DNA of 64,000 nt from an uncultured archaeon (lineage in GTDB: Archaea > Aenigmatarchaeota > Aenigmatarchaeia > QMZP01 > JACQNV01). The stretch spans positions 28,346-92,345 of the forward strand of contig CAZVWU010000001.1 in the NCBI GenBank assembly GCA_964631205.1. Direction: 5' to 3'. This document shows positions 668-61,122 of the stretch, in pieces; the first letter of the stretch is position 1; each line of letters starts with the position of its first letter. The notes below the pieces were generated by a model that saw only the letters and a program-made list of their open reading frames with translations, was not told where the DNA came from and ran no database searches. Position numbers and translations under genes: made by a program.

Positions 668-1621
668 CTAATTATTCTTCATCCTTCCATTGTTTTCTTC
701 CTCTTCCTTGACAAGCTCTTCGACTTTGTCTTTTATGCCGAGCTTTTCGATTATCTCCTTGTACCTGTTCCTGATTGTGACTTCTGTGACGCCGATTGCG
801 TCTGCGACTTCCCGCTGCGTTTTTTTCTCGCCTTCAAGCACAGCGGCTATGTAAAGCGCTGCTGATGCAACCCCGATCGGGCCCTTTCCAGAGGTGACAT
901 CGAATTCGCTTGCCTCGTCCAATATTTTCACGGCCTTTACCTGGACCCTTTCAGAAAGCCCAAGCAAAGAGCCGAACCTTGGGACATAATCCTGAGCTTT
1001 TGCAGGCAATATCCTGATCGCAAGCTTCCTCGAGATATACCTGTAAGTTTTTCCTATATCCCGCCTGCTTATACCTGAAGATTTTGAAATTTCGTCAAGT
1101 GTCCTTGGAGCCCCATGCTCCCTGCAGGTTGTATACAATAAAGCGGCTATAATGGATTCTGTTGACCTTCCCCTAACCAAGCTATCGTTTGCGGCCCGCT
1201 CATAAAGCTTTGCTACCTTTTCGTGGACTGCAGGCGACAACCCCAACTGTGAAACCAGCCTCTGGAGCTCAGAAAATGCAAAAGATAAATTTCTATCCCT
1301 TGACTTGATTAATCTCTTATGCCACTTGGCAAGCCTGTAATACTGGGCCCTTTTCTTTGAGCTAACCTTGAAAAGCTCGCCCTTTCCTTTGCCAATCTCA
1401 GTTGTAATGCCATGATCGTGTTTTGTAGGAGTCAGAGGCGCGCCTGTCCTCACCCTTTTAGACCGCTGGTTTTCATCAAAGGCACGCCATTCCTGTGTAA
1501 GGTCAATCATGCTCTCTTTCAGGACCAGCCCGCATGAGCCGCAAACGCTTTCGCCGCGTGAAGGGTCATAATTCACTTTTGCTGAGCCGCATTCCGGGCA
1601 TCCAGGTTTTTTTTGTTCCAT
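668..1621 (-). CDS. tfb: Transcription initiation factor IIB (TFB)
   Basis: 317 aa. N-terminal zinc ribbon CPECGS...CGSCG is followed by two cyclin-like repeats, which is the typical archaeal TFB architecture. Confidence 0.9.
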   Translation of the reverse strand: MEQKKPGCPECGSAKVNYDPSRGESVCGSCGLVLKESMIDLTQEWRAFDENQRSKRVRTGAPLTPTKHDHGITTEIGKGKGELFKVSSKKRAQYYRLAKWHKRLIKSRDRNLSFAFSELQRLVSQLGLSPAVHEKVAKLYERAANDSLVRGRSTESIIAALLYTTCREHGAPRTLDEISKSSGISRRDIGKTYRYISRKLAIRILPAKAQDYVPRFGSLLGLSERVQVKAVKILDEASEFDVTSGKGPIGVASAALYIAAVLEGEKKTQREVADAIGVTEVTIRNRYKEIIEKLGIKDKVEELVKEEEENNGRMKNN

Positions 1622-1740: not shown

Positions 1741-3246
1741 TCATGGGTTGGCGTCGAATTCTAGAGTGTACCTTATGCCTTTAGGGACAGCCTTTCTCCC
1801 TGTATCTAGGAGTACGAAATTTTCTCCAACAAGATGGTTTATTTCTGGATCTGTTTTAACATTATTCACTTTTCCTCTCGCAGGAATTATTGGCTCCCTC
1901 TCCAAAGTGCAATCTGACTTAGTTTCCAGCAAGAATTTATAGTGCAAACTCCCATCCCTGTTTTTTCTTCTTATAGTATTTTGAACTAAGTCACGTACAA
2001 CTCCATTATCAGTATCTATCAACGACTCTACAGCAGGATCGCCATAAGCTATAAACCCGTCGCTTAGAAGCAGGTCAATTACTTCTTTTGATTTTATAGG
2101 CTCGCCTCTTGTATAGCCAAGCTTTCCAAGCATATACTGGGTGCTTATCTGGGATTTCCATAAAGATTCCATGAATGGGTTTCCTTCCCTGAATGCATAC
2201 CATTTCCAGCCCTGGCCTGCGTGGTTTGCTAATTCAGTAAGCCCGAAAACAGGCTGTATCCAGCCAAATATTTGGTCAGCTCCGCCGCTCCTTTGAAGAC
2301 CAAGGGCTATAGAATCTTTGCCATGGCCTATCCTTGCAAATTCGCAGTTTGTTGGGGCAGCATAAACCTTTGGGTTGTCAGACTTTAGTTCTTTCAACCT
2401 TTTCCCCTTCTCATCGTAAATATAGACTTTTCCATCAGAAGCATCGAATACAAGTTTCCAGTCTCTGTATCCAGGCTCGTCCTGTGTAGGAAAACCAAGG
2501 TCAACAGCATTGTGCGCTGCATGGCCTTCAAATCCTACAAAATCCGGATTGTTCTTAACAAAATAATCTGCAAATTCAGGCCCTGCTATTTCAACTCCAT
2601 CTTCAGCAAGTTTCTTTCCTAACTCCTTTCTCAGCCTTTTAACTTGCCTTTTGGCTTCTGAAGTTTTACGGTCTTTTGCTGTGCCAAACACAAGCCCCTG
2701 TTTTGCAAGCCTTATCGGCGGTTCCAGGCCTTTTCCAAGAACATTGCCAATTTTTCTTGCCTGTGATTTGGCAATTTTCAGAGCACCGGCAGGATCATAT
2801 CCAGTGATTATTCCGCCAACAGCGGTTGGGTAGCCTTTTTCATCTCTTAGTGCATCGTAAAATTTTACTGCAGATGATCCCCTCAAGATTCTGAAGAAGG
2901 ACTGCAAATTATCTGTTGGGAATGGTTGCGTTTCCAATCTTTCAGGCAGTTCTATATATGCAGCATGTGTTGCGCCTTCCAAATCCGCTTTTACATCTTC
3001 TACTCCATTTTTATATTTCAGAATTCTGGCTCCAGGATATTTCTCAGCCAATGTTCTGGCAACCGTTCCCCAGCCGTTATTTTCGAAAACATCTTTACCA
3101 ATAATAACAGCATGAACTGGCGTATCCTTTTTTGGCTCCCCTGAATAAGCAAAATTTTCAAGACTCCCGGCTGCATAGGTTGCTCCTGTAGCTACAGATA
3201 GCTTCAAAACTTCCCTTCTTGTGAAACCTTCATTTTGCATAGCCAT
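1741..3246 (-). CDS. Tat-signal secreted protein of unknown function
   Basis: 501 aa. The N-terminus has a twin-arginine motif, TRREVLKLSVATGATYAAG. I recognised no catalytic family. A TATA-like ttttatataa sits about 40 nt upstream on the minus strand. Confidence 0.5.
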   Translation of the reverse strand: MAMQNEGFTRREVLKLSVATGATYAAGSLENFAYSGEPKKDTPVHAVIIGKDVFENNGWGTVARTLAEKYPGARILKYKNGVEDVKADLEGATHAAYIELPERLETQPFPTDNLQSFFRILRGSSAVKFYDALRDEKGYPTAVGGIITGYDPAGALKIAKSQARKIGNVLGKGLEPPIRLAKQGLVFGTAKDRKTSEAKRQVKRLRKELGKKLAEDGVEIAGPEFADYFVKNNPDFVGFEGHAAHNAVDLGFPTQDEPGYRDWKLVFDASDGKVYIYDEKGKRLKELKSDNPKVYAAPTNCEFARIGHGKDSIALGLQRSGGADQIFGWIQPVFGLTELANHAGQGWKWYAFREGNPFMESLWKSQISTQYMLGKLGYTRGEPIKSKEVIDLLLSDGFIAYGDPAVESLIDTDNGVVRDLVQNTIRRKNRDGSLHYKFLLETKSDCTLEREPIIPARGKVNNVKTDPEINHLVGENFVLLDTGRKAVPKGIRYTLEFDANP

Positions 3247-3340
3247 AATTGCTTTCCTTCTATTAATAAATTAGAATATAACATTGTTATATAAAATGAG
3301 CCCGAAGGGGTATTCGTAACCTTCTAATTGTTTCTTTCTT

Positions 3341-3352
3341 GGGTTATAAGGC
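3341..3352. promoter_or_regulatory. Motif X (TTCTTTCTT-GGGTTATAAGGC), copy 1 of 4, inside intron 2 of tRNA-Arg(TCG)
   Basis: The 12-mer GGGTTATAAGGC is conserved in all four copies. The other three copies are at 9989-9999 (ends GGT), 20015-20026 and 20071-20082. On the reverse strand it reads as a TATA-like CCTTATAACCC followed by a purine-rich AAGAAAGAA. Confidence 0.4.
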
Positions 3353-3500
3353 TTCTTTCTTTTTTAAAGAAAGAAGGGTATATATCGAACCCTCAACCTC
3401 CCGGTCCGAAGCCGGGCGCTCTATCCAGATGCTCCCCCAAACCTTTATATCTTCACAAACTGCTACAGTTACCTTCTTTTAGGTAGGCTGTAGCCTTAAA

Positions 3501-3549
3501 GGGACGAAACTGATTGCCTATCCAATTGATCTACAATCAGTTTCAACCT
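3501..3549 (-). repeat. Palindromic element family H (GAAACYGAT...ATCRGTTTCGTCC), copy inside intron 1 of tRNA-Arg(TCG)
   Basis: Minus strand reads GAAACTGATT-[19 nt]-AATCAGTTTC-GTCCC-TTTAAGG. 10-bp perfect stem. Confidence 0.6.
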
Positions 3550-3634
3550 TCTTTTTAAAAGGCTCAGAATTGAGCTACGGGCCCATCTTAAGTATATGCT
3601 GAATTAGTTAAATAGGTAAATAAAAAGGTAGTCT

Positions 3635-4786
3635 ATGGAGCAGATATTGGCTTTCATCCTGGGCAAAAATCCTGAGCTTTCAACAGCTGAAATTTTATCC
3701 TACCTTTCTGCAAGAGGGATTGTATCCGAGGTTTTGGCCAAAGAAGAGCAGTTTTTTATTTTAAAAATATCAGACCAAAGTCTGGACATCAAAATAGAAG
3801 ATCTTGGAGGCACAATAAAAATTTGCAGAATATTTCAAGTCTCAGAATCCATAAAGGTTGAAATAGAAAATATTTTCGATTTGAACAAGGGAAAAATAAT
3901 TTTTGGTTTAAGTTTTTATAATATTAAAAACTGGCAAAGCCTTTATACAGAAATCGGCAAACAGCTCAAACAGAAGCTAAGAGAAAAAGGGATAAAATCA
4001 GGCTACTTCCACTTGCCTAAAGGCAGAAGCTATCTAAGCCATGTAGAGGTTATCAAGAAGAATTTAGTAGAAAATGGGGAGGTTGTATTCTGTTTCTCGG
4101 GGGGAAAATACTATATTGGAAAAACAATCCAAGTCCACAATCCCTTTGAATTCCAGAAGAGAGATATAGGCAGGCCTGAACAGAGAGCAATATTCTCAAT
4201 CCCTCCAAGGCTGGCAAAAATAATGGTAAATTTATTAGGTATAAAGTCAGGGATTATATTAGATCCATTCTGCGGTATCGGGACTATCCTGCAGGAAGCT
4301 GTTTTGATGGGGTTTGATGTAAGGGGGGTTGATATAGATAAAAATTGTGCAGTTTCAGCGAGAAAAAATCTTGATTGGTTGAAAAAAGAATATAGTTTAG
4401 AATTGAAAGAATTAGATAAGAAAATAATTTCAGGGGATTCCAGGAAACTCTCTAAATATTTTGGTAAAGAACCAATAGACGGAATAGCCACAGAACCTTA
4501 CCTCGGCCCACCTTTGAAAAAATATACAGAGAGGAAAAAAGCCGAAAAAATCCTTTCGGAGCTGGACGAATTGTATACAAAAGTTTTGTCTGAATGCCAT
4601 AAAATCCTGAAGTCAAGTGGGAGGGTTTGCATAATTTCCCCAAGGATAAAATTAGGCAATTCCACAATAAGCCTGAATATGCCAGAAATCTGTAAAAAAA
4701 CTAATTTCCAATTACTCCACACCTACACAGACTCCGAAGAAAGGCATCGCCTTATCAGGGAGATAAATGTGCTGGAGAAGGTCTAA
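3635..4786 (+). CDS. THUMP-domain tRNA (guanine-N2)-methyltransferase, Trm11/Trm14-like
   Basis: 383 aa. The C-terminal Rossmann domain has the SAM motif LDPFCGIGTILQEA. The N-terminal region resembles THUMP. Confidence 0.55.
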   Translation: MEQILAFILGKNPELSTAEILSYLSARGIVSEVLAKEEQFFILKISDQSLDIKIEDLGGTIKICRIFQVSESIKVEIENIFDLNKGKIIFGLSFYNIKNWQSLYTEIGKQLKQKLREKGIKSGYFHLPKGRSYLSHVEVIKKNLVENGEVVFCFSGGKYYIGKTIQVHNPFEFQKRDIGRPEQRAIFSIPPRLAKIMVNLLGIKSGIILDPFCGIGTILQEAVLMGFDVRGVDIDKNCAVSARKNLDWLKKEYSLELKELDKKIISGDSRKLSKYFGKEPIDGIATEPYLGPPLKKYTERKKAEKILSELDELYTKVLSECHKILKSSGRVCIISPRIKLGNSTISLNMPEICKKTNFQLLHTYTDSEERHRLIREINVLEKV

Positions 4787-6204
4787 TCTAAAGCTCTAAC
4801 CAACTTCTCCCTTATCTCTTTCGCATCCACCTGGCCTTTCGTCTCTTTCATTACCTGCCCAACCAAAAACTCGAGGGCCTTCTTTTCTCCGGATTGGTAA
4901 TCATTTACTGGTTTCTGGTTATTTTCTATTATTTTTTTAATTATATTTTCCAGATCAAGCTTTGTTTTCAGTAAATTGTATTTCTCCACAATCTCTTTTG
5001 CATCCCTTTTCTCCTCCACCATTTTCCTTATAGCGATCTCTGCATTCCTGTCTGTTATTTTTCCCTCTTCAAAAAGTTTCAATAAATTTATTATCCAGTC
5101 TTTTTCAAGGCCGGTCTGCTTAAACCTGAGGTTATTCCAGTTCAGCGTCTTCTTTAAATCGCCTGCAATAAAGCTTCCTGCAATTTTTGGGTCTATTTTT
5201 TTTGAGGCCTCCTCAAACAGTTCAGCAATATCGATTTCAGAAACAAGCGACTCTGCGACAGCTTCAGCCAATTTGTAATCTTTCATGAATCTCTTGTATT
5301 TCTGGTCAGGCAATTCAGGCAATTCCTTCTTCAGCGTCACTGCAAGCTGCTTCTGTACAGTAAATTTAGGCAGGTCAGGCTCCATTATATAACCGTATTC
5401 AGCCTCGGCTTCCTTTCCCCTCATTTCTTGGGTTGTCCCCAAATCAGGGTTCCAGCCCCTAGTCTGCATTTTAACCTGAACACCTCTTGTGAGCAAGCTG
5501 GCCTGCCTAATCATCTCATATTTCAAGGCATCCTCAACCTCTTTCTGGCCTGTAATATTTTTTATCTCAACCCTGTTGCCTGTTATCCCTTCACCATGCA
5601 TCGAAATATTTGCATCGCTTTTCATCACGGCCTGTGAAGTTGTGTCATAGATTCCAATATACTCCAGAATTGTTGTCAGCTTCTGCAAATACAGCCTCGC
5701 CTCCTGTGGGCTTTCAAATTCAGGCTCTGTTACTATTTCAATAAGAGGTATACCTGCCCTGTTGTAATCAACCAGAACATATTTCCCCCCAAGCCCGCCG
5801 ACATGAACTATCTTTGCAGGGTCCTCTTCTATATGTATCCTTCTTATTGTAATTTTCTTTTTCTTCCCATTCACATCTATTTCCAAAAACCCTCCAGAAG
5901 CAAGCGGGATTTCATATTGGGTTATTTGGTAATTCTTCGGCATGTCAGGATAAAAATAAGTTTTCCTTGAAAAATACATCTCATCCGCAATTCTGCAGTT
6001 CAGTGCAACGCCTACCTTTGTGGCCAGCTCGACAACTTTTTTGTTTAAGGCAGGCTTTGAGCCAGGCATCCCAAGGCATATCGGGCATGTAAGGCTGTTC
6101 GGCTCCGGCTCCTCTTTCAGATTCACCGGATTCCTGCAGCCGCAAAAAATCTTTGTAAGGCTGTTCAATTGGACATGGGTCTCAAGGCCTATCTTGACCT
6201 TCAT
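4783..6204 (-). CDS. gatB: Asp/Glu-tRNA amidotransferase subunit B (GatB)
   Basis: 473 aa. The N-terminus MKVKIGLETHVQLNSLTKIFCGC is the GatB/GatE hallmark. The length fits GatB rather than GatE. Confidence 0.8.
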   Translation of the reverse strand: MKVKIGLETHVQLNSLTKIFCGCRNPVNLKEEPEPNSLTCPICLGMPGSKPALNKKVVELATKVGVALNCRIADEMYFSRKTYFYPDMPKNYQITQYEIPLASGGFLEIDVNGKKKKITIRRIHIEEDPAKIVHVGGLGGKYVLVDYNRAGIPLIEIVTEPEFESPQEARLYLQKLTTILEYIGIYDTTSQAVMKSDANISMHGEGITGNRVEIKNITGQKEVEDALKYEMIRQASLLTRGVQVKMQTRGWNPDLGTTQEMRGKEAEAEYGYIMEPDLPKFTVQKQLAVTLKKELPELPDQKYKRFMKDYKLAEAVAESLVSEIDIAELFEEASKKIDPKIAGSFIAGDLKKTLNWNNLRFKQTGLEKDWIINLLKLFEEGKITDRNAEIAIRKMVEEKRDAKEIVEKYNLLKTKLDLENIIKKIIENNQKPVNDYQSGEKKALEFLVGQVMKETKGQVDAKEIREKLVRALD

Positions 6205-9375: not shown

Positions 9376-9416
9376 CTGGACATGGGTCTCTTGCCATCCA
9401 GATTTGTGTCATCCCT
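9376..9416. repeat. Palindromic element, P-variant (same termini, different core)
   Basis: CTGGACATGGGTCTCTTGCCATCCAG-ATTTG-TGTCATCCCTT. It overlaps the last codons of thpR and lies 25 nt upstream of the start of the 8956 gene. Confidence 0.5.
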
Positions 9417-9969
9417 TAAGGCTAAAACTTTCGATTTCTGTATAAATGGGCCCCTTCCCTGTTAGGGTACTTTTGAAAAGTTTTATCTCGCTGACCCCCA
9501 TCTCCCCGATAACGGATTTTTCAATGGATTTTATTTTTTCCAGGATTCTTCCCTTTTCTTTCACAAATCCAGCCCTTGCAATTGTAAGGTGCGGGTGCTG
9601 ATCATAATCTTCTTCCCTTACATCCCTCAACAAATTATTCAGCTCCTTTTCCATCTCAATTATAACTTCCCTCCCTTTCCCAACATCCAGAAAAATCACC
9701 CGAATAAATTTCGGCGGATTGAAAAAAGATAATTCTTCAAGTGAAAGTGTAAACTGTTTAAACTTCCCTGACACCAATTTTATCCTTTCTGCTATTTCTT
9801 TAACAGTGTTATCTGGAACTTCGCCCAAGAACTTCAGAGTCAGATGCAAATTTTCAGGCTCAACAAGCTTTATTTCTTTTCTGTTAGAGAATTCCTCAAA
9901 ATTTTTCTGCATACAGGCTATTTTTTCTTTTAAGCCTTCAGAAAGTTCTATTGCGACAAACAACCTCAT
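9409..9969 (-). CDS. thpR: RNA 2',3'-cyclic phosphodiesterase / 2'-5' RNA ligase (LigT/ThpR, 2H family)
   Basis: 186 aa with two H-x-T-x motifs, HLTLKFLG and HLTIAR. Confidence 0.8.
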   Translation of the reverse strand: MRLFVAIELSEGLKEKIACMQKNFEEFSNRKEIKLVEPENLHLTLKFLGEVPDNTVKEIAERIKLVSGKFKQFTLSLEELSFFNPPKFIRVIFLDVGKGREVIIEMEKELNNLLRDVREEDYDQHPHLTIARAGFVKEKGRILEKIKSIEKSVIGEMGVSEIKLFKSTLTGKGPIYTEIESFSLKG

Positions 9970-9988
9970 ACCTGATATTTTTTTCTTT

Positions 9989-9999
9989 GGGTTATAAGG
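9989..9999 (-). promoter_or_regulatory. Motif X copy positioned as a TATA box for thpR
   Basis: On the minus strand CCTTATAACCC is centred about 27 nt upstream of the thpR ATG at 9969. This is consistent with a leaderless promoter. Confidence 0.45.
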
Positions 10000-10152
10000 T
10001 TTTTCCTTGTAAATGTTTTCTTTTGGTTATACCTTCTTTTGTAAAAAAAAGGTATACCTTCACGCAACTTCACACCATCAAGATATATAAATCACCAGAC
10101 TATATCTTAGTTTATCACAAATGAACAAATAAGCTTTGCTTGGAGCCAACCT

Positions 10153-19314: not shown

Positions 19315-19698
19315 TTAGCTTTTCAGGAGGATCCTGTTTCCGAACTTCCAATAGGTTATTTCAGCGCCGGGCTGAACCTTGGCTTTCATATCGTCCGGCA
19401 CAGCCGTCTCGAAAGTAGTGTAATCTGTAAGGTCCATTATCTGCGCAGAATTCCCGGAAACTGAGATTACTTGGCCGCCCCTTTTTTCTATTATTGGGAC
19501 AGAAACATCCGAATCTGCAGGCTTCATAAGGGTCCTTTTCCTGTCATCAAAGATGCCAACAGCCTCAACCCTTGCCTTTGCAGAACCATGCTTCCCTGGC
19601 TTTGAAAGCTCAACTTTCGTGACCTTGCATGGCTCGCCATCAACCATCAGATAGCCGCCTTCCTTTACTTCTTTCAGGCTTGCGGCTCTTTCCTCCAT
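19315..19698 (-). CDS. eif5a: Translation initiation factor 5A (aIF-5A)
   Basis: The hypusination loop SKPGKHGSAKA is present. 127 aa. Confidence 0.85.
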   Translation of the reverse strand: MEERAASLKEVKEGGYLMVDGEPCKVTKVELSKPGKHGSAKARVEAVGIFDDRKRTLMKPADSDVSVPIIEKRGGQVISVSGNSAQIMDLTDYTTFETAVPDDMKAKVQPGAEITYWKFGNRILLKS

Positions 19699-19703
19699 AA
19701 TAG

Positions 19704-19748
19704 TTGGAAATAGACTTCCGTGTTATCCAGTGTCTATTTCATCCCCTT
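19704..19748 (-). repeat. Hairpin element in the aIF5A 5' leader (related architecture)
   Basis: Minus strand reads AAGGGGATGAAATAGAC-[16 nt]-GTCTATTTCCAAC-TATT-ATG. 9-bp stem. Confidence 0.45.
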
Positions 19749-19801
19749 CAACTCCTTAAAAACAAATATAGTATATACTCTTATAATATTAAATAGCTTA
19801 A

Positions 19802-19938
19802 CGGGCCCGCAGAGATTCGAACTCTGATCACAACCTCCGCAAAGTTGCATCCTATCCATTATCTGTAAACTCTTTCTTTTCCCGATAAGGGCTTTTCTTT
19901 CTTTAGAAAGAAAAGGGCTTACATTAGACGACGGGTCC
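19802..19938 (-). tRNA. tRNA-Arg (anticodon GCG) with an intron of about 65 nt in the D-loop
   Basis: The 3' exon (19802-19856) is GATAGGATG-CAACT-TTGCGGA-GGTTG-TGAT-CAGAG-TTCGAAT-CTCTG-CGGGCCC-G. The 5' exon (19922-19938) is GGACCCGTCGTCTAATG. The acceptor stem has one A3:C70 mismatch. TAATG occurs at both junctions, so the exact boundary is ambiguous. A TATA (tttataaatat) lies about 27 nt upstream. Confidence 0.5.
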
Positions 19939-20096
19939 TTGCCGATTTATTGTATATTTATAAATATCTTATGTAAATAAGGTATACTTATGAAAAGTGT
20001 AAATCCCTTCTTCTGGGTTATAAGGCTTTTCAAGATTGAATCAACTGCAGAAAGAAAATGTTTTCTTTCTGGGTTATAAGGCTCTTTCGTCTTCAG

Positions 20097-20127
20097 CTGG
20101 AAACCGATTCGAAAATCGGTTTCGTCC
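20097..20127 (+). repeat. Palindromic element family H, minimal copy
   Basis: CTGGAAACCGATT-CGAA-AATCGGTTTC-GTCC, about 20 nt upstream of the zinc-ribbon/EF-1beta operon. Confidence 0.6.
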
Positions 20128-20131
20128 GTTT

Positions 20132-20150
20132 AAAGAAAGAGGGTATATAT
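20132..20150 (+). promoter_or_regulatory. Motif Y (AAAGAAAGARGGGTATATAT)
   Basis: There are two copies: 3366-3385 (inside tRNA intron 2) and 20132-20150 (overlapping the zinc-ribbon ATG). A purine-rich BRE-like run is followed by a TATA-like run. Confidence 0.35.
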
Positions 20151-20307
20151 GAAATGCACAAGCTGCGGGGTCAGCGTTGATGTTGACAAGATATGGGTGG
20201 AATTCCTCTGCCCTTCATGCGAGAAGGAGAAGATTGTCCGGTGCAGCAAATGCAAGAGGCTTGTGAACAAGTATAAATGCCCCGGATGCGGATTCAGCGG
20301 TCCATGA
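20149..20307 (+). CDS. Zinc-ribbon protein, the conserved partner of aEF-1beta (COG2888-like)
   Basis: 52 aa with four CxxC pairs (MKCTSCG...CPSC...CSKC...CPGCG). Its stop overlaps the start of the EF-1beta gene (ATGA). This gene is not in the ORF track because it is under 60 aa. Confidence 0.6.
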   Translation: MKCTSCGVSVDVDKIWVEFLCPSCEKEKIVRCSKCKRLVNKYKCPGCGFSGP

Positions 20308-29308: not shown

Positions 29309-29914
29309 CTAATACTCAACACCCCTTCTTCCCAAAACCTTGTTCCTTTTCTTATTGAAGGGGTGTTTTATTGAGACGATCTCATTCACATAATCAGCAG
29401 CATCCATTATCTCTTCAGGGCATCCCCTGCCTGTCAAAACAAGCTCAATATTTTTCGGCTTCCCCATCATCAGTTCCAAAACATCATCCACATCCAGATG
29501 CTTCATGCTAAGGACAACATTTATTTCATCGAGTATGACAAAATCAAATCTTCCTGAAGCCATCACCTTTTTTGCAAACTCCAGCCCCTTTTTGTAAAGC
29601 TCTTTCTCATCTTCAAACTCGTAAAAGATCGCTTTTGAAGGCTTTACAATCCCTTTTTTTATCTGGTCCGCATAAGGTGTTGATTGCCCGAACTCAAAAA
29701 ATTTCATCCTCCTCTTCAGGTATTTTTCAGCTGCAAGGATCTCCCCAAAATAATACCCGCCTTTCATGAACTGGATGACGCACACACGGAACCCCTGGCC
29801 GATTGCCCTAAAAGCAAGCCCAAGAGAAGCAGTTGTCTTGCCTTTTCCATTTCCTGTATAGACATGTATCAGGCCAAGCTCGTTTTTAAACTGGGCGTTT
29901 TCTTTTCTGGGCAT
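29309..29914 (-). CDS. cobO: Cob(I)alamin adenosyltransferase (CobA/CobO/BtuR family)
   Basis: P-loop YTGNGKGKTTA. The start is the internal Met MPRKENAQF. The upstream extension in the ORF track is the reverse complement of a palindromic element. Confidence 0.7.
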   Translation of the reverse strand: MPRKENAQFKNELGLIHVYTGNGKGKTTASLGLAFRAIGQGFRVCVIQFMKGGYYFGEILAAEKYLKRRMKFFEFGQSTPYADQIKKGIVKPSKAIFYEFEDEKELYKKGLEFAKKVMASGRFDFVILDEINVVLSMKHLDVDDVLELMMGKPKNIELVLTGRGCPEEIMDAADYVNEIVSIKHPFNKKRNKVLGRRGVEY

Positions 29915-29920
29915 AAACAG

Positions 29921-29966
29921 CTGGAAACCGATCTTATATGATTTGTTAAAGATCGGTTTCGTCCCT
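29921..29966 (+). repeat. Palindromic element family H
   Basis: CTGGAAACCGATC-[17 nt]-GATCGGTTTC-GTCCC. On the minus strand it ends TTTCCAG, 6 nt before the cobO ATG. Confidence 0.6.
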
Positions 29967-30024
29967 CTAAAAAACAAAATATATTTGTTTTCAGGCTAAA
30001 TAAAGATTTTCAAAAAAACCCGGC

Positions 30025-32907: not shown

Positions 32908-33921
32908 ATGATCGAAATCGACGGTTCCCAAGGCGAAGGCGGCGGCCAGATTTTAAGGACGGCCATAGGGTTGTCTGCTGTAACAGGCAAGCATGTGAAA
33001 ATTTTCAACATCAGAAAAGGCAGGCCTAATCCAGGGCTCCAGGCACAGCATTTGGTTGGGATAAAGGCTGTTTCTGAAATCTGCGATGGAAAATTAAATG
33101 GAGCAGATCTCAGATCAACTGAAGTTGAGTTTACTCCGGGAAAAATTAAAGGCGGGGATTATAAATTTGATGTCGGGACAGCGGGTGCTGTTACTCTTGT
33201 TCTGCAGAGCCTCACTATTCCTGCAATCCATGCGGACAAAGAAATTAATTTTGAGATAATTGGAGGCACGCATGTGAGCTGGTCTCCTACTTTTGATTAT
33301 TTCCAGCATATTTTTTGCGGATGGCTTAAAACTTTAGGTATCCAGATAGAAGCGGGAATTTTAAAATATGGGTTTTATCCTAAAGGCGGTGGAAGAGTAA
33401 AAGTTTCTATTCAGCCAGCAGCACCAAAAAATTTACAGTTAACTGAAAGAGGAGATTATTTGAGAACTGATATTTTTTCAAATGCTTCAAGGGAACTTCA
33501 AAAAAATAAAGTTGTGGAGAGGCAGATAGAAGGGGCTGAAAAAATAATAAAAACAACTAATAAAATGGAAGCATATGTCGACTCTCTGTCAACTGGAACA
33601 GCTGTCCATATGCACTCACATTATAAAAATTGCCAATTAGGCTCTTCTGTAATTGGCGAAAGAAATAAATCCGCAGAAAAAGTTGGGGAGGAAGCAGCAG
33701 AGAAATTAAAAAAGCAGATGGATTCCGGAGCGACCATGGACGAATGGATGTCCGACCAAATCCTCCCTTTTCTGGCTCTTGCAAAAGGAAAGTCTGAATT
33801 TATAACCTCTGTGCTGACGAAGCACGCAGAAACAAATATCTGGGTAATAAAGAAATTTTTGGATGTGGAGTTCAACGTGGACTGCTTGGAGAAAGGGGTA
33901 AAGATAAGTTGTCGAAGTTAA
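32908..33921 (+). CDS. rtcA: RNA 3'-terminal phosphate cyclase (RtcA)
   Basis: N-terminus IDGSQGEGGGQILRTAIGLSAV, about 340 aa. Confidence 0.85.
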   Translation: MIEIDGSQGEGGGQILRTAIGLSAVTGKHVKIFNIRKGRPNPGLQAQHLVGIKAVSEICDGKLNGADLRSTEVEFTPGKIKGGDYKFDVGTAGAVTLVLQSLTIPAIHADKEINFEIIGGTHVSWSPTFDYFQHIFCGWLKTLGIQIEAGILKYGFYPKGGGRVKVSIQPAAPKNLQLTERGDYLRTDIFSNASRELQKNKVVERQIEGAEKIIKTTNKMEAYVDSLSTGTAVHMHSHYKNCQLGSSVIGERNKSAEKVGEEAAEKLKKQMDSGATMDEWMSDQILPFLALAKGKSEFITSVLTKHAETNIWVIKKFLDVEFNVDCLEKGVKISCRS

Positions 33922-39932: not shown

Positions 39933-39935
39933 GGG

Positions 39936-40040
39936 TTTAGGTTGCACTATGCAATATGGTTTCTGTTAACATTCGGACTGGATATCACCAGAAGGCAGGA
40001 ACTTGCTGTTTAGGTTGCACTATGCAATATGGTTTCTGTT
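39936..40040 (+). repeat. 32-bp perfect direct repeat (TTTAGGTTGCACTATGCAATATGGTTTCTGTT) x2 with a 41-nt spacer
   Basis: Copies are at 39936-39967 and 40009-40040. The second copy contains the sdo1 start codon (ATGGTTTCTGTT). Confidence 0.7.
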
Positions 40041-40733
40041 GACCAGGCCGTTATAGCAAGAATAGTAAAACAAGGCATTACTTTTGAAATACTAGTCGAC
40101 CCTGAAAAGGCTCTAGAGTTCAGGAAAGGAAAGCCTTATTCTATAGAGAATATCTTAGCAATCAACCAGGTTTTCAAGGATTCCAAAAAAGGCGAAAGAG
40201 TTTCAAACCAGGAGCTGAAAAAAGGTTTCGAGACAACTGACATATTAAAGGTTGCAGAAATTATTATCAAGGAAGGCGAAGTCCAGCTTACCACAGAGCA
40301 GAGAAGGAAGATGGTGGAGGAGAAGAGGATTGAAATAGCCGGCATAATCTCAAGGCAAGGCGTTGACCCGAAAACACATGCCCCCCACCCTCAGCAAAGG
40401 ATACTAAATGCGATGGAACAAGCCCATGTTGATATAGACCCTTTCAGGCAGGCAAAAGACCAGGTACCGCAAATTATTAATAGGTTGCAACCAATAATAC
40501 CCATAGCTTTTGAAAAGGTCACTCTGGCTATAAAAATCCCAGTCGAGAATGCCGGAAAAGCTGGTTATGCTATAAGGGAATTTGGCGAAGTAGAAAAAGA
40601 GGAATGGACTTCTGCTTCTTGGATTGCAATGCTCACAATCCCTGCAGGCATGCAGACAGCTTTGTACGATAAAATAAATGGCCTGACAGCAGGCAGGGCA
40701 GAGGTCAAAATTTTGAAGAGGGAGAGCGTGTGA
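40029..40733 (+). CDS. sdo1: Ribosome maturation protein SDO1/SBDS
   Basis: 234 aa. It is in the conserved position between psmA and rrp4. Confidence 0.8.
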   Translation: MVSVDQAVIARIVKQGITFEILVDPEKALEFRKGKPYSIENILAINQVFKDSKKGERVSNQELKKGFETTDILKVAEIIIKEGEVQLTTEQRRKMVEEKRIEIAGIISRQGVDPKTHAPHPQQRILNAMEQAHVDIDPFRQAKDQVPQIINRLQPIIPIAFEKVTLAIKIPVENAGKAGYAIREFGEVEKEEWTSASWIAMLTIPAGMQTALYDKINGLTAGRAEVKILKRESV

Positions 40734-44329: not shown

Positions 44330-44416
44330 TGCCAAATGCCGGTTGGAACTGATTGCAGATCAATTGGACAGGCAATCAGTTTGTGATCTCTTTAAGCCAA
44401 CAGCTTACTCTAATTT

Positions 44417-49232: not shown

Positions 49233-49236
49233 CGGA

Positions 49237-49283
49237 AAAGGGATGACATAGGTCTTCTTCAATTGGTCAAGACCTATGTCCGC
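49237..49283. repeat. Palindromic element family P
   Basis: AAGGGATGACATAGGTCTT-CTTCAATTGGTC-AAGACCTATGTCCGCC. It lies between the ftsZ stop and the terminator hairpin. Confidence 0.6.
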
Positions 49284-49292
49284 CTGAATCGG

Positions 49293-50420
49293 CTACCCCT
49301 CAACAAAAACTTTTATTCCAAATTCCTCAGACAGGTTATGGGTCGTGGCCTCGGTTTTGATCTTTGCCTGCTTTTGGCCAAATGGGCCGATTATGTAAGG
49401 CGAGTTCACACCTGTTATTATTGTTATAACCCTTACTTTGCCGCCAAAATTCGGGTCTATTCTTGATCCCCAGATAACCTGCGCATCTGGGTCAAGCTGC
49501 TTTGAGACGTATTCGCCGATCAGGTTAACTTCCTCAAGTTTTAGGTCTGGCCCACCTGTTATGTGAAGTAAAGCTCCTGACCCTCCTGTATAGTCAACAT
49601 CAAGCAACGGATTTGTTAAAGCCTTAACAACAGCATCCTCTGCCCGGTTGTCTGTATCAGATTCCCCAAATCCAACTGTGGCAACCCCTCCTGAATGCAT
49701 GATTGTTTTCACATCTGCATAATCCAGGTTTACAAGAGACGGCATTGAAATCGTTTCTGTGACCCCCTTTATCATCGTGGCGATAATATTGTCAGAAACT
49801 GCAAAAGCCTGTTCAATCGGCAGGTCTCCTGCAACTCTTAGCAGCCTGTCGTTTTCGATCACAATTGCAGTGTCACAGTATTGCCTTAATTGGAACAACC
49901 CATCTTCTGCCTTTGCCATCCTTGCGCCTTCTATTTTGAAGGGCATTGTCACAGCTCCGATAACTATAGAGCCGAGCTCCTTTGCAATCCTTGCAACTTC
50001 AGGAGCTGAACCTGTTCCTGTACCGCCGCCCAAGCCTGCAACAACATAAACCATGTCGGCATCTGCTAAAACTTTTTTTATGTCCTTTTCATTTTCAAGC
50101 GCAGCCTTTTTGCCAACTTCCGGATACCCTCCTGCGCCAAGCCCCCTTGTAAGCTCTTTTCCGATCAAAATTTTATTGTGCGCGTTTGTCCTTGTCAGGT
50201 GCTTGACATCTGTGTTTAAGGCAAGCGTCTTTGCGCCTTCGACACCCATTGTTGTCAGCCTGTTTATTGTATTTGAGCCGCCGCCTCCGCAGCCGGCAAC
50301 AACTATCCTTGCATCCTTCAAATCTATCCCAAACTGCTCCTGGATGGATTTCCTCTGCAGTTCACGGTCCATAGGCTCCTTGAATGTATTGTCAAAGACC
50401 TTTTCGACTATTGAATTCAT
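49293..50420 (-). CDS. ftsZ: Cell division GTPase FtsZ
   Basis: GGGTGTG-type motifs ([14 protein letters not shown]). The start is the internal Met MNSIVEK. Confidence 0.9.
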
Positions 50421-52028: not shown

Positions 52029-53324
52029 CTATACAGGAGAGCTGAAATTTTTTAAGGTTTTAATTATTTCTTCCAGGCCGCTTACCTTCTCCTCCCCGCA
52101 GACCATATCCCTTAATTTGAATTTTTTATCTTTCAATTCCTTTTCGCCCACAAACAAAACAAAAGGGATCGAGCAGGAGTTTGCATATTTTAATTGGGCT
52201 GACAAATTTTTTCCTGTCAAATCAAAATCTGCGGATATACCTTCGCGCCTGAATCTTTGGCATATTTTCAAAGCGTCTGGCCTGACATTATCGCTAACAG
52301 AAACAACAAAAAGCTTTACAGGGGCCTCCAGTTTAAACATTTTATTGTCTTCCATCGCATCAACTATCCTTTCAAAACCCAATCCTATGCCAACAGCAGG
52401 AATATCTTTTCCGCCAAACTGTTTTATCATATTGTCATATCTGCCACCACCTGCCAGACTTAATTTCCCGCCAACACCGACCTCAAAAACAGCCCCTGTG
52501 TAATATTCCAAACCCCTAACTAAACTGAAATCTATTTTCACACTTTTCTCATAACCAAAAGCTTTCACAAATCCTATTATATCCCTCAATTCTGTTATTG
52601 CATTTTTCCCAAGTTGGTTATCTACTAATTTCCCAGCCTTATCCAAAATCTCCGAGCCACCTTTTATTTTAATAAATTCAAGAATCTTCCCAATCTTCCT
52701 ATCGTCGTTTAATTTTTCCTTGAGTTCTTTTCGTACACCTTCTTCACCTATCTTATCCAATTTATCTATTGATCTGAAAACGCCAACAACATCTTTTATT
52801 CCAACAAAATCAACGAAAGCCTCTATCAGTTTTCTATTGTTCAGCCTTATGATAAAATCCTCAAAGCCAAGGGCATCAAAAATATCGCAAGTTGCTGCAA
52901 CTATCTCAGCGTCTGCTTCTGGCTTGCCTGAACCAAAAATGTCCAGATCAAACTGCTGGAACTCTCTATACCTGCCAGCTTGCGGATTGTCATACCTCCA
53001 AACTTTTCCAGTTGCGTATCTTTTGAAAGGCAAGGGAAGGTCAAGTTTAGAGGCAACAAGCCTTGCAGTAGGGACAGTCAAGTCAAATCTTAACCCAAGT
53101 TCCCTATTTCCCTGATCCTTAAAATAATAAATTTCTTTCTTGATTTCCTCGCCTCCGCCGCCTTTTGCAGCCAGTAACCCAAAGCTTTCCAGAGCAGGCG
53201 TATCTGTAGGCAAGAACCCCCAGCGCTGCGCAACATCAGACATGATCTGCTGGACAAACTGCCTCCTGAGCATTTCAGCTGGCCAAAAGTCGCGCATGCC
53301 TTTGACGACTTGGAATTTGTTCAT
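52029..53324 (-). CDS. hisS: Histidyl-tRNA synthetase
   Basis: Motif 1 region VKGMRDFWP and a class II core. The start is at MNKFQ. Confidence 0.85.
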   Translation of the reverse strand: MNKFQVVKGMRDFWPAEMLRRQFVQQIMSDVAQRWGFLPTDTPALESFGLLAAKGGGGEEIKKEIYYFKDQGNRELGLRFDLTVPTARLVASKLDLPLPFKRYATGKVWRYDNPQAGRYREFQQFDLDIFGSGKPEADAEIVAATCDIFDALGFEDFIIRLNNRKLIEAFVDFVGIKDVVGVFRSIDKLDKIGEEGVRKELKEKLNDDRKIGKILEFIKIKGGSEILDKAGKLVDNQLGKNAITELRDIIGFVKAFGYEKSVKIDFSLVRGLEYYTGAVFEVGVGGKLSLAGGGRYDNMIKQFGGKDIPAVGIGLGFERIVDAMEDNKMFKLEAPVKLFVVSVSDNVRPDALKICQRFRREGISADFDLTGKNLSAQLKYANSCSIPFVLFVGEKELKDKKFKLRDMVCGEEKVSGLEEIIKTLKNFSSPV

Positions 53325-53531
53325 GATCATATATTGGCTACAATCTTCTTTAATAACTGCACAAAATCTTCTGCTACTGTTTCCAGCATCGCTATCTCCC
53401 TGCATATTTCTCTATATCCAAATTTTAGATCCCCATACATTCCCCTCCCCTGATAATAGTCTCCCATGTTTGTTCTATTTCTTTGTCCAACTCATACAGC
53501 CTTCTCTGATAAAAGTCCAGCTTTTCCAAAT

Positions 53532-56079: not shown

Positions 56080-56439
56080 TCAGGCCAATATTCTAATTCC
56101 TTTTCCGTCTGGATTTTCTTTTAACAGACGATCAAGTTCCCAGCATTTTCCGCCAGCCTTTTCTATTTTTTGTTTTGCTGATCCTGAAAATTTTAGGGCG
56201 GCAACATTAAGTTTTTTTGTGACTTCTCCAGTCCCCAAAACAATCCCTGGGACAACAACAGTTTCCTTTCCTCCAGCAATTTTATCCAGCCTGTAGAGGT
56301 TTATCTTGTGGCCAACCCTTTTTGGCCTGTTCAAGCCTTTTGCAATTGCCTTCCACACAGGTTTTTCCCTGCTTTCCAGCTCAATTATCAGGTGCTGCAG
56401 TTGCTGGTGCTTGCTCCTAAGTTTTAATGCCATAACCAA
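56080..56439 (-). CDS. rpl18e: Ribosomal protein L18e (eL18)
   Basis: 119 aa. It has the archaeal L18e pattern and the conserved position next to L13. Confidence 0.8.
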   Translation of the reverse strand: MVMALKLRSKHQQLQHLIIELESREKPVWKAIAKGLNRPKRVGHKINLYRLDKIAGGKETVVVPGIVLGTGEVTKKLNVAALKFSGSAKQKIEKAGGKCWELDRLLKENPDGKGIRILA

Positions 56440-56489
56440 ATTCTTATACTAATAAGTACCTTATATTTATAAATAGTCGCAGGAGAGCT

Positions 56490-57200: not shown

Positions 57201-58391
57201 ATGCGGGAGATGGGCAAAGGCTCTTCGCAATTGGTCTCAGGTTTTGAGTTCAGGGTGTTGAGTGGTGTCTACAGGAAGGCCTTAATTGGTATCTTGAATA
57301 ATGTATCGGAAGAGAATAAAAGCATTATCTACAGGTTTCTGGAAGAGGAATGCGTTAAAAAAGGCTTGACTGAAAGACGGAGGGAAAAGTATATACGGAT
57401 TATATCAAAAGTTGTATCCTCAATTGGAACCAGAATTTTAAATGAAATAAACAAACCGGACATAGACAACTTCTTTTTCTATCTGAAATCAAGCAACCTC
57501 AGTGACCCGACAAAGGAAGACTACTGGAATATGTTCAGGATATTTTCTGAATACTTGAACCCAAATCTCGGAGTCAGGACTTACAGGCTCAAAACCAAGA
57601 AGAAGCATAAACTGCCAGAAGAAATCTTCAAAGAGGATGAGATCAAAATGGTGATAGAAGCCGCTTATTCTATTCGGGACAAAGCTCTCCTCAGCCTTCT
57701 ATATCACGGAGCTTTGAGGCCTTTGGAACTTACAAGCGCCAGAATAATGGATTTAACCTTTGACCAGTATGGGGCTGTCCTGATGGTGAGGGAGATCAAC
57801 AAGACAGGCTCCAGAAGGTTAAGATTGATAGAACCTGTCCCTTTGCTAGCCCAGTATTTACAAGAGCACAGATACAGGGAAGATCCGCATGCGCCTTTAT
57901 TTTACAGGCAGGACAGATATACAAAGACACATCTTAACCCTCAGCAATTAAGCAGACTTGTAAAGGAATGCTCAAAGCGGGCAGGAATAAACAAAGGAAG
58001 GATGTACGCATATCTGTTCAGGCACAGCAGACTCACACACCTATCAAAACATCTCACAAGCCAAGAGGTAATGGTTTTCGCTGGCCACACTCAATTAGCA
58101 ACAACACAGATCTATGTGCATCTGTCGGGCACAGATGTTGAGAACAAATTGCTAAAGATAAACGGGATTGTAAAGCAGGAGGAAAATACTGCTGTTTTAA
58201 AAACACAGATTTGTGTAAGGTGCAATACGCAAGCAGACGCCTCTTCCAAATACTGCCCAAAATGTGGGATGGTTCTTGATCAAAAAGAGGCTTTTTATTT
58301 GAAAGACAAAACTGAAAATGATTTCCAACAGTTTATGATGGAGATGTTCAGGAAGTGGAAAAATAGTACAGAACATGAAAGAAAGCTTTAA
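57201..58391 (+). CDS. Tyrosine recombinase / integrase (phage-integrase family) with a C-terminal zinc ribbon
   Basis: Catalytic residues in RPLEL, LFRHSRLTHL and GHTQLATTQIYVHL. C-terminal CVRCN...CPKCG. Confidence 0.8.
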   Translation: MREMGKGSSQLVSGFEFRVLSGVYRKALIGILNNVSEENKSIIYRFLEEECVKKGLTERRREKYIRIISKVVSSIGTRILNEINKPDIDNFFFYLKSSNLSDPTKEDYWNMFRIFSEYLNPNLGVRTYRLKTKKKHKLPEEIFKEDEIKMVIEAAYSIRDKALLSLLYHGALRPLELTSARIMDLTFDQYGAVLMVREINKTGSRRLRLIEPVPLLAQYLQEHRYREDPHAPLFYRQDRYTKTHLNPQQLSRLVKECSKRAGINKGRMYAYLFRHSRLTHLSKHLTSQEVMVFAGHTQLATTQIYVHLSGTDVENKLLKINGIVKQEENTAVLKTQICVRCNTQADASSKYCPKCGMVLDQKEAFYLKDKTENDFQQFMMEMFRKWKNSTEHERKL

Positions 58392-60329: not shown

Positions 60330-61121
60330 TTAAACAATTATCGTACTTTTCTGATAAAGCAAAGGGAGACAATCTTGTCTTAATCTAAATTTCGTTCCAT
60401 GATTATGTCCTGTGCGAGCATCGAAATCTATCAATATTTTTCCAGAGTCTATTGCTTTCAAAAAACCTTCAAAATTAAATTTTTCCAACATCATAACTTT
60501 TGAATATTTGTAGAATTCTAGGTTACCTTCCTTTTTGACTTCTGCTTGAACATAAAAACAGTTTAGAAGCTTGGTACCAGCTTTATGTTCTAGATCATCG
60601 AAACCCCAATAAGGTTGCGGTTCTAATTCTTTCAAACCTACGCGTTCTTTAACAGATTTAAGCCAGTTCGTGTGTCGTACATCAACTGCCTTATAATCAA
60701 AAGATATAATTATCTTCCTTTCTTTTCTATTGATTATAACCATGAAACCGCGATCACTTCTTGATAAACCATGAATAGTCTGTCTAAAACTCATTTCATC
60801 TTTTGGGTAGTCTAATCCAGCCTCTTCGTGAGGCCAACCATACTTTGGCAAAAGTATTTGTGGTACAAATCGGAAGGCTCTTGGTGATGGCTCAATGTGA
60901 AATAATGTTGTTAAAGATGAGGAATTAAGACGCTGTGCTTTCAATTCCCATTCAGCGGCATTAGGTATTGGTAAATTATTTTCTTTTATACCAAGTAAAT
61001 CCTCAAGAGTATTACCAATTCCACCATGATTACCACTACGACTATTGAGTATCCAGCCTTTCTCTGATATCTCTTTCAACTTTTCAATCAATATTTGTTT
61101 TGTATAAATTATCGTTCCCAT
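60330..61121 (-). CDS. Type II restriction endonuclease, MvaI/BcnI family
   Basis: The N-terminal block SGNHGGIGNTLEDLLGIKENNLPIP is the MvaI/BcnI hallmark. The start is the internal Met MGTIIY. Confidence 0.65.
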   Translation of the reverse strand: MGTIIYTKQILIEKLKEISEKGWILNSRSGNHGGIGNTLEDLLGIKENNLPIPNAAEWELKAQRLNSSSLTTLFHIEPSPRAFRFVPQILLPKYGWPHEEAGLDYPKDEMSFRQTIHGLSRSDRGFMVIINRKERKIIISFDYKAVDVRHTNWLKSVKERVGLKELEPQPYWGFDDLEHKAGTKLLNCFYVQAEVKKEGNLEFYKYSKVMMLEKFNFEGFLKAIDSGKILIDFDARTGHNHGTKFRLRQDCLPLLYQKSTIIV

Positions 61122-61122
61122 A

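Follow-up and report, generated by a model that had tools for sequence, protein, structure and literature searches.

The DNA considered here is a window of 64,000 nucleotides (nt) from an uncultured archaeon (GTDB lineage Archaea; Aenigmatarchaeota; Aenigmatarchaeia; QMZP01; JACQNV01), namely positions 28,346 to 92,345 of the forward strand of contig CAZVWU010000001.1 in assembly GCA_964631205.1. Its minus strand carries, at 3584-3297, a tRNA-Arg(TCG) gene in three pieces, one insert lying in the D-loop and the other in the T-loop. An earlier note on this DNA, written by a model from the sequence, read the pieces as GGGCCCGTAGCTCA, a 46-nt block and ACCCCTTCGGGCTCA (14 + 46 + 15 = 75 nt). They are present as stated, and the program ARAGORN accepts the join as a tRNA-Arg(TCG), with 65% G+C against 40% for the window. 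The 46-nt block supplies the 3' half of the D-arm, the full anticodon arm (CCCGG CT TCG GA CCGGG) and the 5' half of the T-arm. The division into three pieces stands, but each junction was off by one base: the geometry of the bulge-helix-bulge (BHB) motif gives 15 + 45 + 14 = 74 nt (Table 1), and ARAGORN again names the product tRNA-Arg(TCG).

The refined tRNA has the D-loop AACTGGATA and the T-loop TTCGATC; the D-loop is 9 nt, the same length as that of an intron-less orthologue, L011 (AATTGGATA). The predicted mature molecule carries A20, C35, G36, G37 and A73, and the gene does not encode CCA. The candidate TATA box upstream of exon 1 is presumed from its sequence and position to be the promoter of a single precursor, and the orthologues have TATA-like boxes at comparable distances upstream.

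Predicted splice junctions of the interrupted tRNA genes

In archaeal BHB introns each cut lies within a 3-nt bulge, between its second and third bases. The bulge of the 5' cut comes next to a 4-nt exon strand, on its 3' side, and that of the 3' cut stands likewise to the 4-nt intron strand complementary to it. We validated this rule on the canonical 37/38 introns of three relatives (L005, L003 and L013); that of L005 is reproduced exactly as CTTC(GG^C) ... GAAG(AC^A), with bulges in brackets and a caret at each cut. For each window intron, 81 junction offsets were scanned and the central pairs scored. Intron 1 gives GCTC(AA^T) at 3575-3569 with GAGC(AT^C) at 3434-3428, and intron 2 gives TTCG(AT^A) at 3389-3383 with CGAA(TA^C) at 3316-3310. 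Each has 4/4 central pairs, the best of the 81 offsets, so that both junctions present a 4-bp helix between two 3-nt bulges. For both of these introns, and for seven more from the window and its relatives, the offset that restores the tRNA is also the one with the 4/4-bp helix between two 3-nt bulges.

The two motifs are of different completeness. At intron 2 the motif is a full hBHBh', in which the T-stem (GAGGG/CCCTT) forms a 5-bp outer helix; its inner helix, TATACCCTTC/GAAGGTTA, has 2 contiguous base pairs, or 8 if two single-base bulges are allowed. At intron 1 the inner helix, TCTGAGCCTTT (3568-3558) with AAAGGTTTGGGG (3446-3435), has 11 bp with one bulged G, and the motif reads as a relaxed, HBh'-like one because its outer helix is weak. 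The earlier note had called both inserts non-canonical introns and proposed folding the junctions in search of BHB motifs; the position of the inserts and an acceptable motif at either one bear this out. Intron 1 has a fold z of -4.9, and the whole 288-nt precursor, when constrained to both BHB motifs and the cloverleaf, lies only 4.2 kcal/mol above its unconstrained minimum.

Two other ways of drawing the junctions were set aside. With the cuts of the earlier note (A14^A and GC^A for intron 1; GA^T and AT^A for intron 2) the cut sites fall outside the bulge geometry. A mirrored motif at intron 1, in which the D-stem would be the outer helix and TCTG/TGGA the central one, has the same cut sites, but it includes two G·U pairs and a 2-nt gap, and GCTC/GAGC is preferred. 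Self-splicing is also rejected: no ribozyme core of group I or group II was matched in Rfam, and inserts of 141 and 73 nt are too short. No Rfam intron family matched the introns, even at E-values up to 10; the matches over the introns at permissive E-values were to miRNA and snoRNA families only and were judged meaningless.

A second interrupted gene, tRNA-Arg(GCG), lies on the same strand. It has one D-loop intron, whose motif, GTCT(AA^T)GTAAG ... TTTAC AGAT(AA^T), follows the same rule. Its acceptor stem has an A3·C70 mismatch. All the tRNA genes seen, both in the window and both in the genome of the relatives L003 and L013, are interrupted, which suggests a lineage with heavy disruption of its tRNA genes.

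How visible are such genes? On the uninterrupted DNA, ARAGORN reports no tRNA anywhere in the 64 kb, and Rfam at its gathering score has no match at the tRNA-Arg(TCG) locus. The best that Rfam offers there is a pseudo-tRNA at 3366-3438 that scores 22.5 bits, below the cut-off of 29, and takes GGGGGAG as a false acceptor arm. The Arg-GCG gene is reported by ARAGORN at a lowered threshold only, and misnamed as a tRNA-Ile with intron; two further calls made with the intron option and lowered threshold, 49606-49700 and 53227-53412, lie inside coding sequence, lack a T-arm and were discarded. Because both programs fail on the uninterrupted DNA, annotation pipelines would miss the tRNA-Arg(TCG) gene. 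Standard annotation probably misses many other tRNAs in this and related DPANN genomes as well, and genomes with such genes then appear to lack tRNAs.

Table 1. Features of the window, in window coordinates; H, X and Y are sequence elements described in the text.
Feature	Positions	Strand	Description
Second T/A-rich box	3615-3629	-	upstream of tRNA-Arg(TCG) exon 1
Candidate TATA box CTATTTAACTAA	3604-3615	-	about 24-31 nt upstream of exon 1; read from sequence
tRNA-Arg(TCG) exon 1, GGGCCCGTAGCTCAA	3570-3584	-	15 nt; positions 1-15: acceptor 5' strand, U8 A9, D-stem 5' strand, A14 A15
Intron 1	3429-3569	-	141 nt; D-loop, position 15/16
H hairpin in intron 1	3494-3555	-	stem GAAACTGATTG/CAATCAGTTTC; flanks GGTTG...GTCCCTTTAAG; cmsearch 78.7 bits
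Exon 2	3384-3428	-	45 nt; positions 16-59: D-arm remainder, anticodon arm (TCG), variable loop, T-stem 5' strand, T-loop through T59
Intron 2	3311-3383	-	73 nt; T-loop, position 59/60
X-hairpin-Y core in intron 2	3341-3382	-	X TATACCCTTCTTTC 3382-3369; hairpin 3376-3352; Y GCCTTATAACCC 3352-3341; then AAGAAAGAAA
Exon 3, CCCCTTCGGGCTCA	3297-3310	-	14 nt; positions 60-73: C60, T-stem 3' strand, acceptor 3' strand, discriminator A73
T-rich trailer TTTTATA	3290-3296	-	directly after exon 3
tRNA-Arg(GCG)	19802-19938	-	exon 1 19938-19924; D-loop intron (15/16) 19923-19859, 65 nt; exon 2 19858-19802
Intergenic cassette-like copy	9970-10062	-	Y box 9989-10000, about 20 nt upstream of the ATG of the LigT-like gene
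Intergenic cassette copies	20015-20150	-	in the order X, reversed H (20089-20135), Y (20071-20082), second Y (20015-20026)
Intergenic H copy	29913-29972	+	directly upstream of a CobA/BtuR-like gene (minus strand)
Intergenic H copy	44335-44397	+	between convergent genes; about 75 nt similar to intron 1
TFIIB	668-1621		neighbour of tRNA-Arg(TCG)
Trm11-like tRNA methyltransferase	3635-4786		neighbour of tRNA-Arg(TCG)
GatB	4783-6204		neighbour of tRNA-Arg(TCG)
LigT-like 2',5'-RNA ligase/cyclic phosphodiesterase	9409-9969	-	Y box and cassette-like repeat as apparent promoter region
RtcA RNA 3'-phosphate cyclase	32908-33921	+	RNA-end chemistry gene

Intron content of the orthologues

Orthologues of the gene were sought with the adjacent Trm11-like methyltransferase gene as the synteny anchor. 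In L005, whose methyltransferase is 59% identical, the tRNA-Arg(TCG) gene has a single canonical 37/38 intron of 25 nt. L003 (62%) has three introns, a D-loop intron of 141 nt, a canonical intron of 59 nt and a T-loop intron of 82 nt, of which the first and last occupy the same sites as the introns of the window gene. In L035 and L036 (61%) the same D-loop intron begins and the contigs end inside it (L035 1-160, L036 1-110). Repeat cassettes of the kind described below probably break metagenome assemblies at such tRNA genes, and so hide them further from annotation. L042, whose methyltransferase is 80% identical, departs from the tRNA right after GCTC and shares the start of the window intron, AGCCTTTTC. 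One further contig, L041, holds only 36 nt upstream of the gene and offers nothing on the tRNA.

Searching by DNA pattern extended the series beyond synteny. A 35-base exon 2 pattern found no match in the scan of genome contigs; a 20-base pattern, scanned against genome contigs and metagenomes, returned mostly bacterial tRNAs and chance matches, the relevant ones being L011/L029, L013 and L027. In L011/L029, which are not syntenic, the tRNA-Arg(TCG) gene is intron-less. The intron load of tRNA-Arg(TCG) among these relatives is therefore 0, 1, 2 or 3, at identical sites, and to judge by their placement the introns behave like ordinary introns gained and lost at fixed positions.

Exon 1 is identical in the window, L003, L005, L011 and L035, and the mature tRNA is 88-93% identical to its orthologues (93% to the intron-less L011). 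The positionally homologous introns are just 51-54% identical, and the neighbouring protein about 60%. The contrast is seen even in a strain variant, L002, which is unchanged over the 65 nt of promoter and exon 1 but shows 8 differences within the opening 21 nt of intron 1. Because the exons are conserved while the introns diverge, the pattern is that of a functional gene whose introns would be removed by splicing, not of a decaying pseudogene.

The intron ends follow their hosts. The intron strand of the central helix at the D-loop site covaries with the D-stem of the tRNA in which it lies: GAGC pairs with GCTC in the Arg-TCG genes, and a D-stem strand GTCT is paired with AGAT in the window Arg-GCG gene and with GGAC in the tRNA-Gly(TCC) gene of L013. 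This last gene (L013 1030-1290, minus strand; contig CAYYYJ010000003.1, assembly GCA_964476045.1) has two introns, one of 143 nt in the D-loop and a canonical one of about 52 nt. It comes from the same genome as L003. Over 100 nt its D-loop intron shares about 97% identity with intron 1 of the L003 Arg-TCG gene, and the exon-pairing tails of the two differ.

Repeat modules inside and outside the introns

What are the introns made of? The earlier note had seen a palindromic element, H, in intron 1, and a covariance model built from four H hairpins recovers it there (Table 1). In the alignment of the four copies all cells pair, and 3/9 stem pairs are changed on both sides; the hairpin has a fold z of -5.3, and no C/D or H/ACA boxes were seen in it. 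The model finds further copies in the window at 29913-29972, 20089-20135 and 44335-44397, weaker ones at 49233-49291 and 19696-19752, and others in L003 and L013. H hairpins often stand directly upstream of start codons, in either orientation (19696-19752, 29913-29972 and 20089-20135, all on the plus strand), as in ...GGTTTCCAGCTGTTT-ATG and ...TTTCCAACTATT-ATG. Such a position would place them in 5' untranslated regions or at transcription starts. H may be a regulatory hairpin or a palindrome resembling a miniature inverted-repeat transposable element.

Intron 2 is built on a second module, in which two motifs, X and Y, flank a hairpin. The hairpin has 11 bp (CTTCTTTCTTT/AAAGAAAGAAG), as the earlier note described, and the layout of the intron is TATACCCTTCTTTCTTT - loop - AAGAAAGAAG - CCTTATAACCC - AAGAAAGAAA - (A)TTTACA-like end. 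The Y palindrome is TATA-like, with purine tracts on its flanks. It occurs 4 times in the window where 0.3 occurrences are expected by chance, whereas X by itself, with 2 matches against about 1 expected, is not over-represented. Against viral contigs Y gave one match, inside a coding region, which was judged a chance one. The cassette begins and ends with short inverted repeats, TGTA.A ... T.TACA, and these pair as the inner helix of the BHB motif, most clearly in the Arg-GCG gene (GTAAG ... TTTAC). Indeed the entire 65-nt intron of that gene is an X-hairpin-Y cassette, the same module as in Arg-TCG intron 2; its Y box (CTTATCGG) is degenerate and stands 24 nt from the exon.

This cassette recurs in introns 1 and 3 of L003, in the L035 intron and in the tRNA-Gly intron of L013. 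The T-loop intron of L003 is an X-hairpin-Y cassette, and its D-loop intron is one with an H hairpin nested in the loop. Nor are the modules confined to tRNA genes. The window has cassette-like copies in two divergent intergenic regions, one (20015-20150) between a Zn-ribbon open reading frame (ORF; 20149-20307, plus strand) and the Arg-GCG gene, the other (9970-10062) upstream of the LigT-like gene. The statement of the earlier note that the introns hold dispersed repeats thus gains a second interrupted tRNA gene and intergenic DNA as further places of occurrence. The terminal inverted repeats of the cassettes are only 4-6 nt long, and no target-site duplication was recognised at them, though no systematic search was made.

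Probable function, splicing and origin of the introns

We put at roughly 0.8 the probability that the locus is a functional, single-copy-type tRNA-Arg(UCG) gene of a DPANN archaeon, with two BHB introns built of dispersed repeats, and give about the same probability to the splicing of these introns in cis from a single precursor, which is clearly the most probable route. A transcript of about 290-300 nt would start from the TATA box upstream of exon 1. In it the first BHB motif, seen in the sequence and in folding, would pair the 5' strand of the D-stem, GCUC, with GAGC at the 3' end of intron 1, and the second, seen likewise, would stack on the T-stem and join UUCG of the T-loop to CGAA, the strand that closes intron 2 on its 3' side. 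As in the established archaeal pathway, EndA would then cut after the second base of each 3-nt bulge, a ligase of the RtcB type would join the exons, CCA would be added later, and the introns would be released, probably as circles. The end product would be the 74-nt tRNA-Arg(UCG).

Several points weigh against this account. The outer helix of intron 1 is just 2-3 bp, offset by U8 A9, and an intron without a proper outer helix would therefore need an endonuclease of relaxed specificity. In some relatives the inner helices, counted strictly as contiguous pairs, are short (0-1 bp in the L003 introns). A Pfam scan of 44 window ORFs revealed neither EndA (tRNA_int_endo) nor RtcB. The search for another intact tRNA-Arg(TCG) was confined to the 64-kb window. 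Splicing and the single precursor are themselves inferred from the sequence. The Y box at 9989-10000 stands about 20 nt upstream of the LigT-like gene start, a promoter distance, and could plausibly act as a promoter, so that transcription might also begin inside the tRNA gene; this bears on the first alternative below. As for the endonuclease, the relaxed motif of intron 1 predicts that the EndA of this lineage has broadened substrate specificity. Broadened EndA specificity has been described for the DPANN alpha4 enzyme with its L3 loop, the ARMAN epsilon2 enzyme and the crenarchaeal (alpha-beta)2 enzyme (PMC5829648).

Could the gene be split, rather than interrupted? The earlier note had suggested that the pieces might be transcribed separately. 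In such a scheme X-hairpin-Y would serve as terminator plus promoter, exon 3 would be made on its own and joined in trans at the same BHB motif, and in relatives with a Y box in the D-loop intron exon 2 would be made likewise. The Y box of intron 2 does stand 33 nt upstream of exon 3, and a start about 24 nt downstream of it would leave a leader that still holds the CGAA strand. X is pyrimidine- and T-rich, like the natural 3' trailers of these tRNA genes; since none of those has a long T run, a weak terminator role of the X arm is possible. All the pieces, however, are collinear, in order and on one strand within 288 nt, at one locus rather than at separate loci. Intron 1 has no Y box, and its sole TATA-like box (3442-3452) lies about 14 nt from exon 2, which is too close. 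In Arg-GCG the degenerate Y box leaves no room for a leader bearing the BHB strand, and the distance from Y to exon ranges from 24 to 51 nt among the copies. The helix between separate transcripts, TATACCCTTC/GAAGGTTA, would consist of about 8 A/U-rich pairs with two bulges; there is no long complementary leader or trailer, and no other complementarity beyond the tRNA helices. The split tRNAs of Nanoarchaeum reportedly have G+C-rich duplexes of 12-14 nt. Judging from cassettes with reversed H, and from those located away from tRNA genes, Y appears to belong to a repeat rather than to be a tRNA-specific promoter, and the orthologues resemble ordinary intron gain and loss at fixed sites. We consider separate transcription of the pieces, in whole or in part, unlikely.

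The split and tri-split tRNAs of Nanoarchaeum equitans and Caldivirga maquilingensis (PMC4033280) nonetheless offer a useful comparison. Like the window gene, they have three coding pieces at BHB sites and a promoter-like box before the 3' piece; the pieces here are adjacent, ordered and on one strand, and no long G+C-rich leader or trailer was seen.

A second alternative is that an ancestral tRNA-Arg gene was inactivated by two insertions of dispersed repeats, its function being supplied by another copy. The inserts do consist of repeats that are also present in intergenic DNA, standard tRNA finders fail at the locus, and the reach of the search for another copy, no further than the window, leaves room for one. 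But exact BHB geometry at both inserts restores a perfect cloverleaf, the exons are far better conserved than the introns (88-93% against 51-54%), and the same two insertion sites are occupied in L003, a relative whose flanking protein is just 62% identical. The only other tRNA gene of the window is interrupted likewise, and the intron tail matches each host D-stem. A pseudogene is thus very unlikely. That unrelated tRNA-like fragments met by chance, or in a chimeric contig, can be dismissed as next to impossible: the contig is metagenome-derived, but L001, assembled independently from another sequencing run, shows no difference over its 2,159 nt, which take in exon 1, intron 1 and the first part of exon 2, and this rules out a chimera, orthologous interrupted genes occur in independent assemblies, and three ordered pieces that make a complete tRNA with conserved identity positions go far beyond chance.

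How does the functional, interrupted gene compare with genes already described? Multi-intron tRNA genes with non-canonical BHB introns are known from Thermoproteales (Pyrobaculum, Thermofilum, Caldivirga), Nanoarchaeum, Korarchaeum and ARMAN-1/2 (PMC4033280, PMC4090602). The window gene is like these in its 4-bp helix with two 3-nt bulges, in having more than one intron, in intron sites outside 37/38, in the presence of a strict and a relaxed motif in one gene, and in being missed by standard finders. It differs in its lineage, a DPANN one related to Aenigmarchaeota, in the length of its D-loop intron (141 nt, where the reviewed introns are mostly under 100 nt), and in that its intron bodies are repeats also located outside tRNA genes. 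Site 59/60 is among the listed non-canonical intron sites (PMC4090602); site 15/16 is not named in that list, which ends with 'etc.'. In DPANN lineages tRNA gene disruption is reportedly increased, and some tRNAs are still unidentified or the sets incomplete (PMC5829648). In the literature as far as we covered it, coverage being incomplete, we found no description of such genes in Aenigmarchaeota, and none of tRNA introns composed of dispersed repeats with further copies beyond the tRNA genes. The gene type is already known, and the biology of the cassettes is the part that could be new.

What process put the introns where they are? The gain and loss of BHB introns is still called mechanistically unknown (PMC4090602). 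Transposition of tRNA introns has been described in Thermoproteales (Fujishima et al. 2010, as cited in PMC4033280 and PMC4090602), where the sign is similar introns in different tRNAs or positions of one genome. Such introns are found here: those of Arg-TCG and Gly-TCC in the L003/L013 genome are near-identical, related cassettes occupy D-loop and T-loop, and the Arg-TCG T-loop and Arg-GCG D-loop introns of the window share a module. Near-identical D-loop introns in two tRNA genes of one genome are the mark of a cassette that has recently spread between such genes. Since the modules recur in other tRNA introns and in intergenic DNA, the most likely origin of the window introns is a recent invasion of tRNA genes by repeat cassettes, a process that would be of the same kind as in Thermoproteales. 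Set against the Thermoproteales introns as the citing papers summarise them, the cassettes here are also intergenic, they are composite, with H nested in the X-hairpin-Y loop in either orientation, and each intron is fitted to its host exon in its final 6-25 nt only. A further parallel is the gain of an intron through a mobile element in Caldiarchaeum subterraneum (PMC3293823), where, as here, related genomes differ in the intron number of one tRNA gene in connection with repeated or mobile DNA. That element is 1.8 kb, encodes a recombinase and dispersed a tRNA fragment (PMC3293823); the repeats here are non-coding and 60-110 nt long, and the gene is intact and collinear.

With 0-3 introns at fixed sites and near-identical cassettes elsewhere, these genes form a compact comparative system for the gain and loss of BHB introns. 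A more ambitious proposal, which we hold tentatively, is that X-hairpin-Y and H make up a family of small mobile cassettes that bring their own inner BHB helix and are actively colonising intergenic DNA and tRNA D- and T-loops in this DPANN lineage. If true, the lineage would offer a live system in which tRNA introns are being gained, one orthologous gene having between 0 and 3 of them in its close relatives. In a stronger version the T-rich X arm would be a terminator and the TATA-like Y a promoter, and introns made of cassettes would be intermediates on the way toward split tRNA genes.

Neighbouring genes and minor features

The window is ordinary archaeal chromosome. Besides the neighbours listed in Table 1, it holds farther along genes for ribosomal proteins, proteasome alpha, SBDS, exosome subunits, RadA and FtsZ. 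The homologues of the Trm11-like methyltransferase that carry a name are all from Candidatus Aenigmarchaeota/Aenigmatarchaeota, at about 40-47% identity, which places the source among DPANN archaea related to Aenigmarchaeota. Directly downstream of tRNA-Arg(TCG) lies a 501-aa ORF (1741-3246, minus strand) that has no Pfam match and whose N-terminus resembles a twin-arginine signal (MAMQNEGFTRREVLKLSVATGA).

At the right of the window, a gene of the phage integrase family (57201-58391, plus strand) and a restriction endonuclease gene of the MvaI/BcnI type (60330-61199, minus strand) lie near each other, and they may mark an integrated element at that end. Near the integrase region, at 56307-56465, Rfam gives a weak, sub-threshold match to RT-3 (23.7 bits, where the cut-off is 40.5). 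A 36-nt direct repeat, GTTTAGGTTGCACTATGCAATATGGTTTCTGTTAAC, has two copies on the plus strand, 39935-39970 and 40008-40043, that are 97% identical and start 73 nt apart. Both are located between the proteasome-alpha and SBDS genes, the second copy overlapping the predicted SBDS start, and the pair may represent either a local duplication or a CRISPR-like remnant of two repeats.

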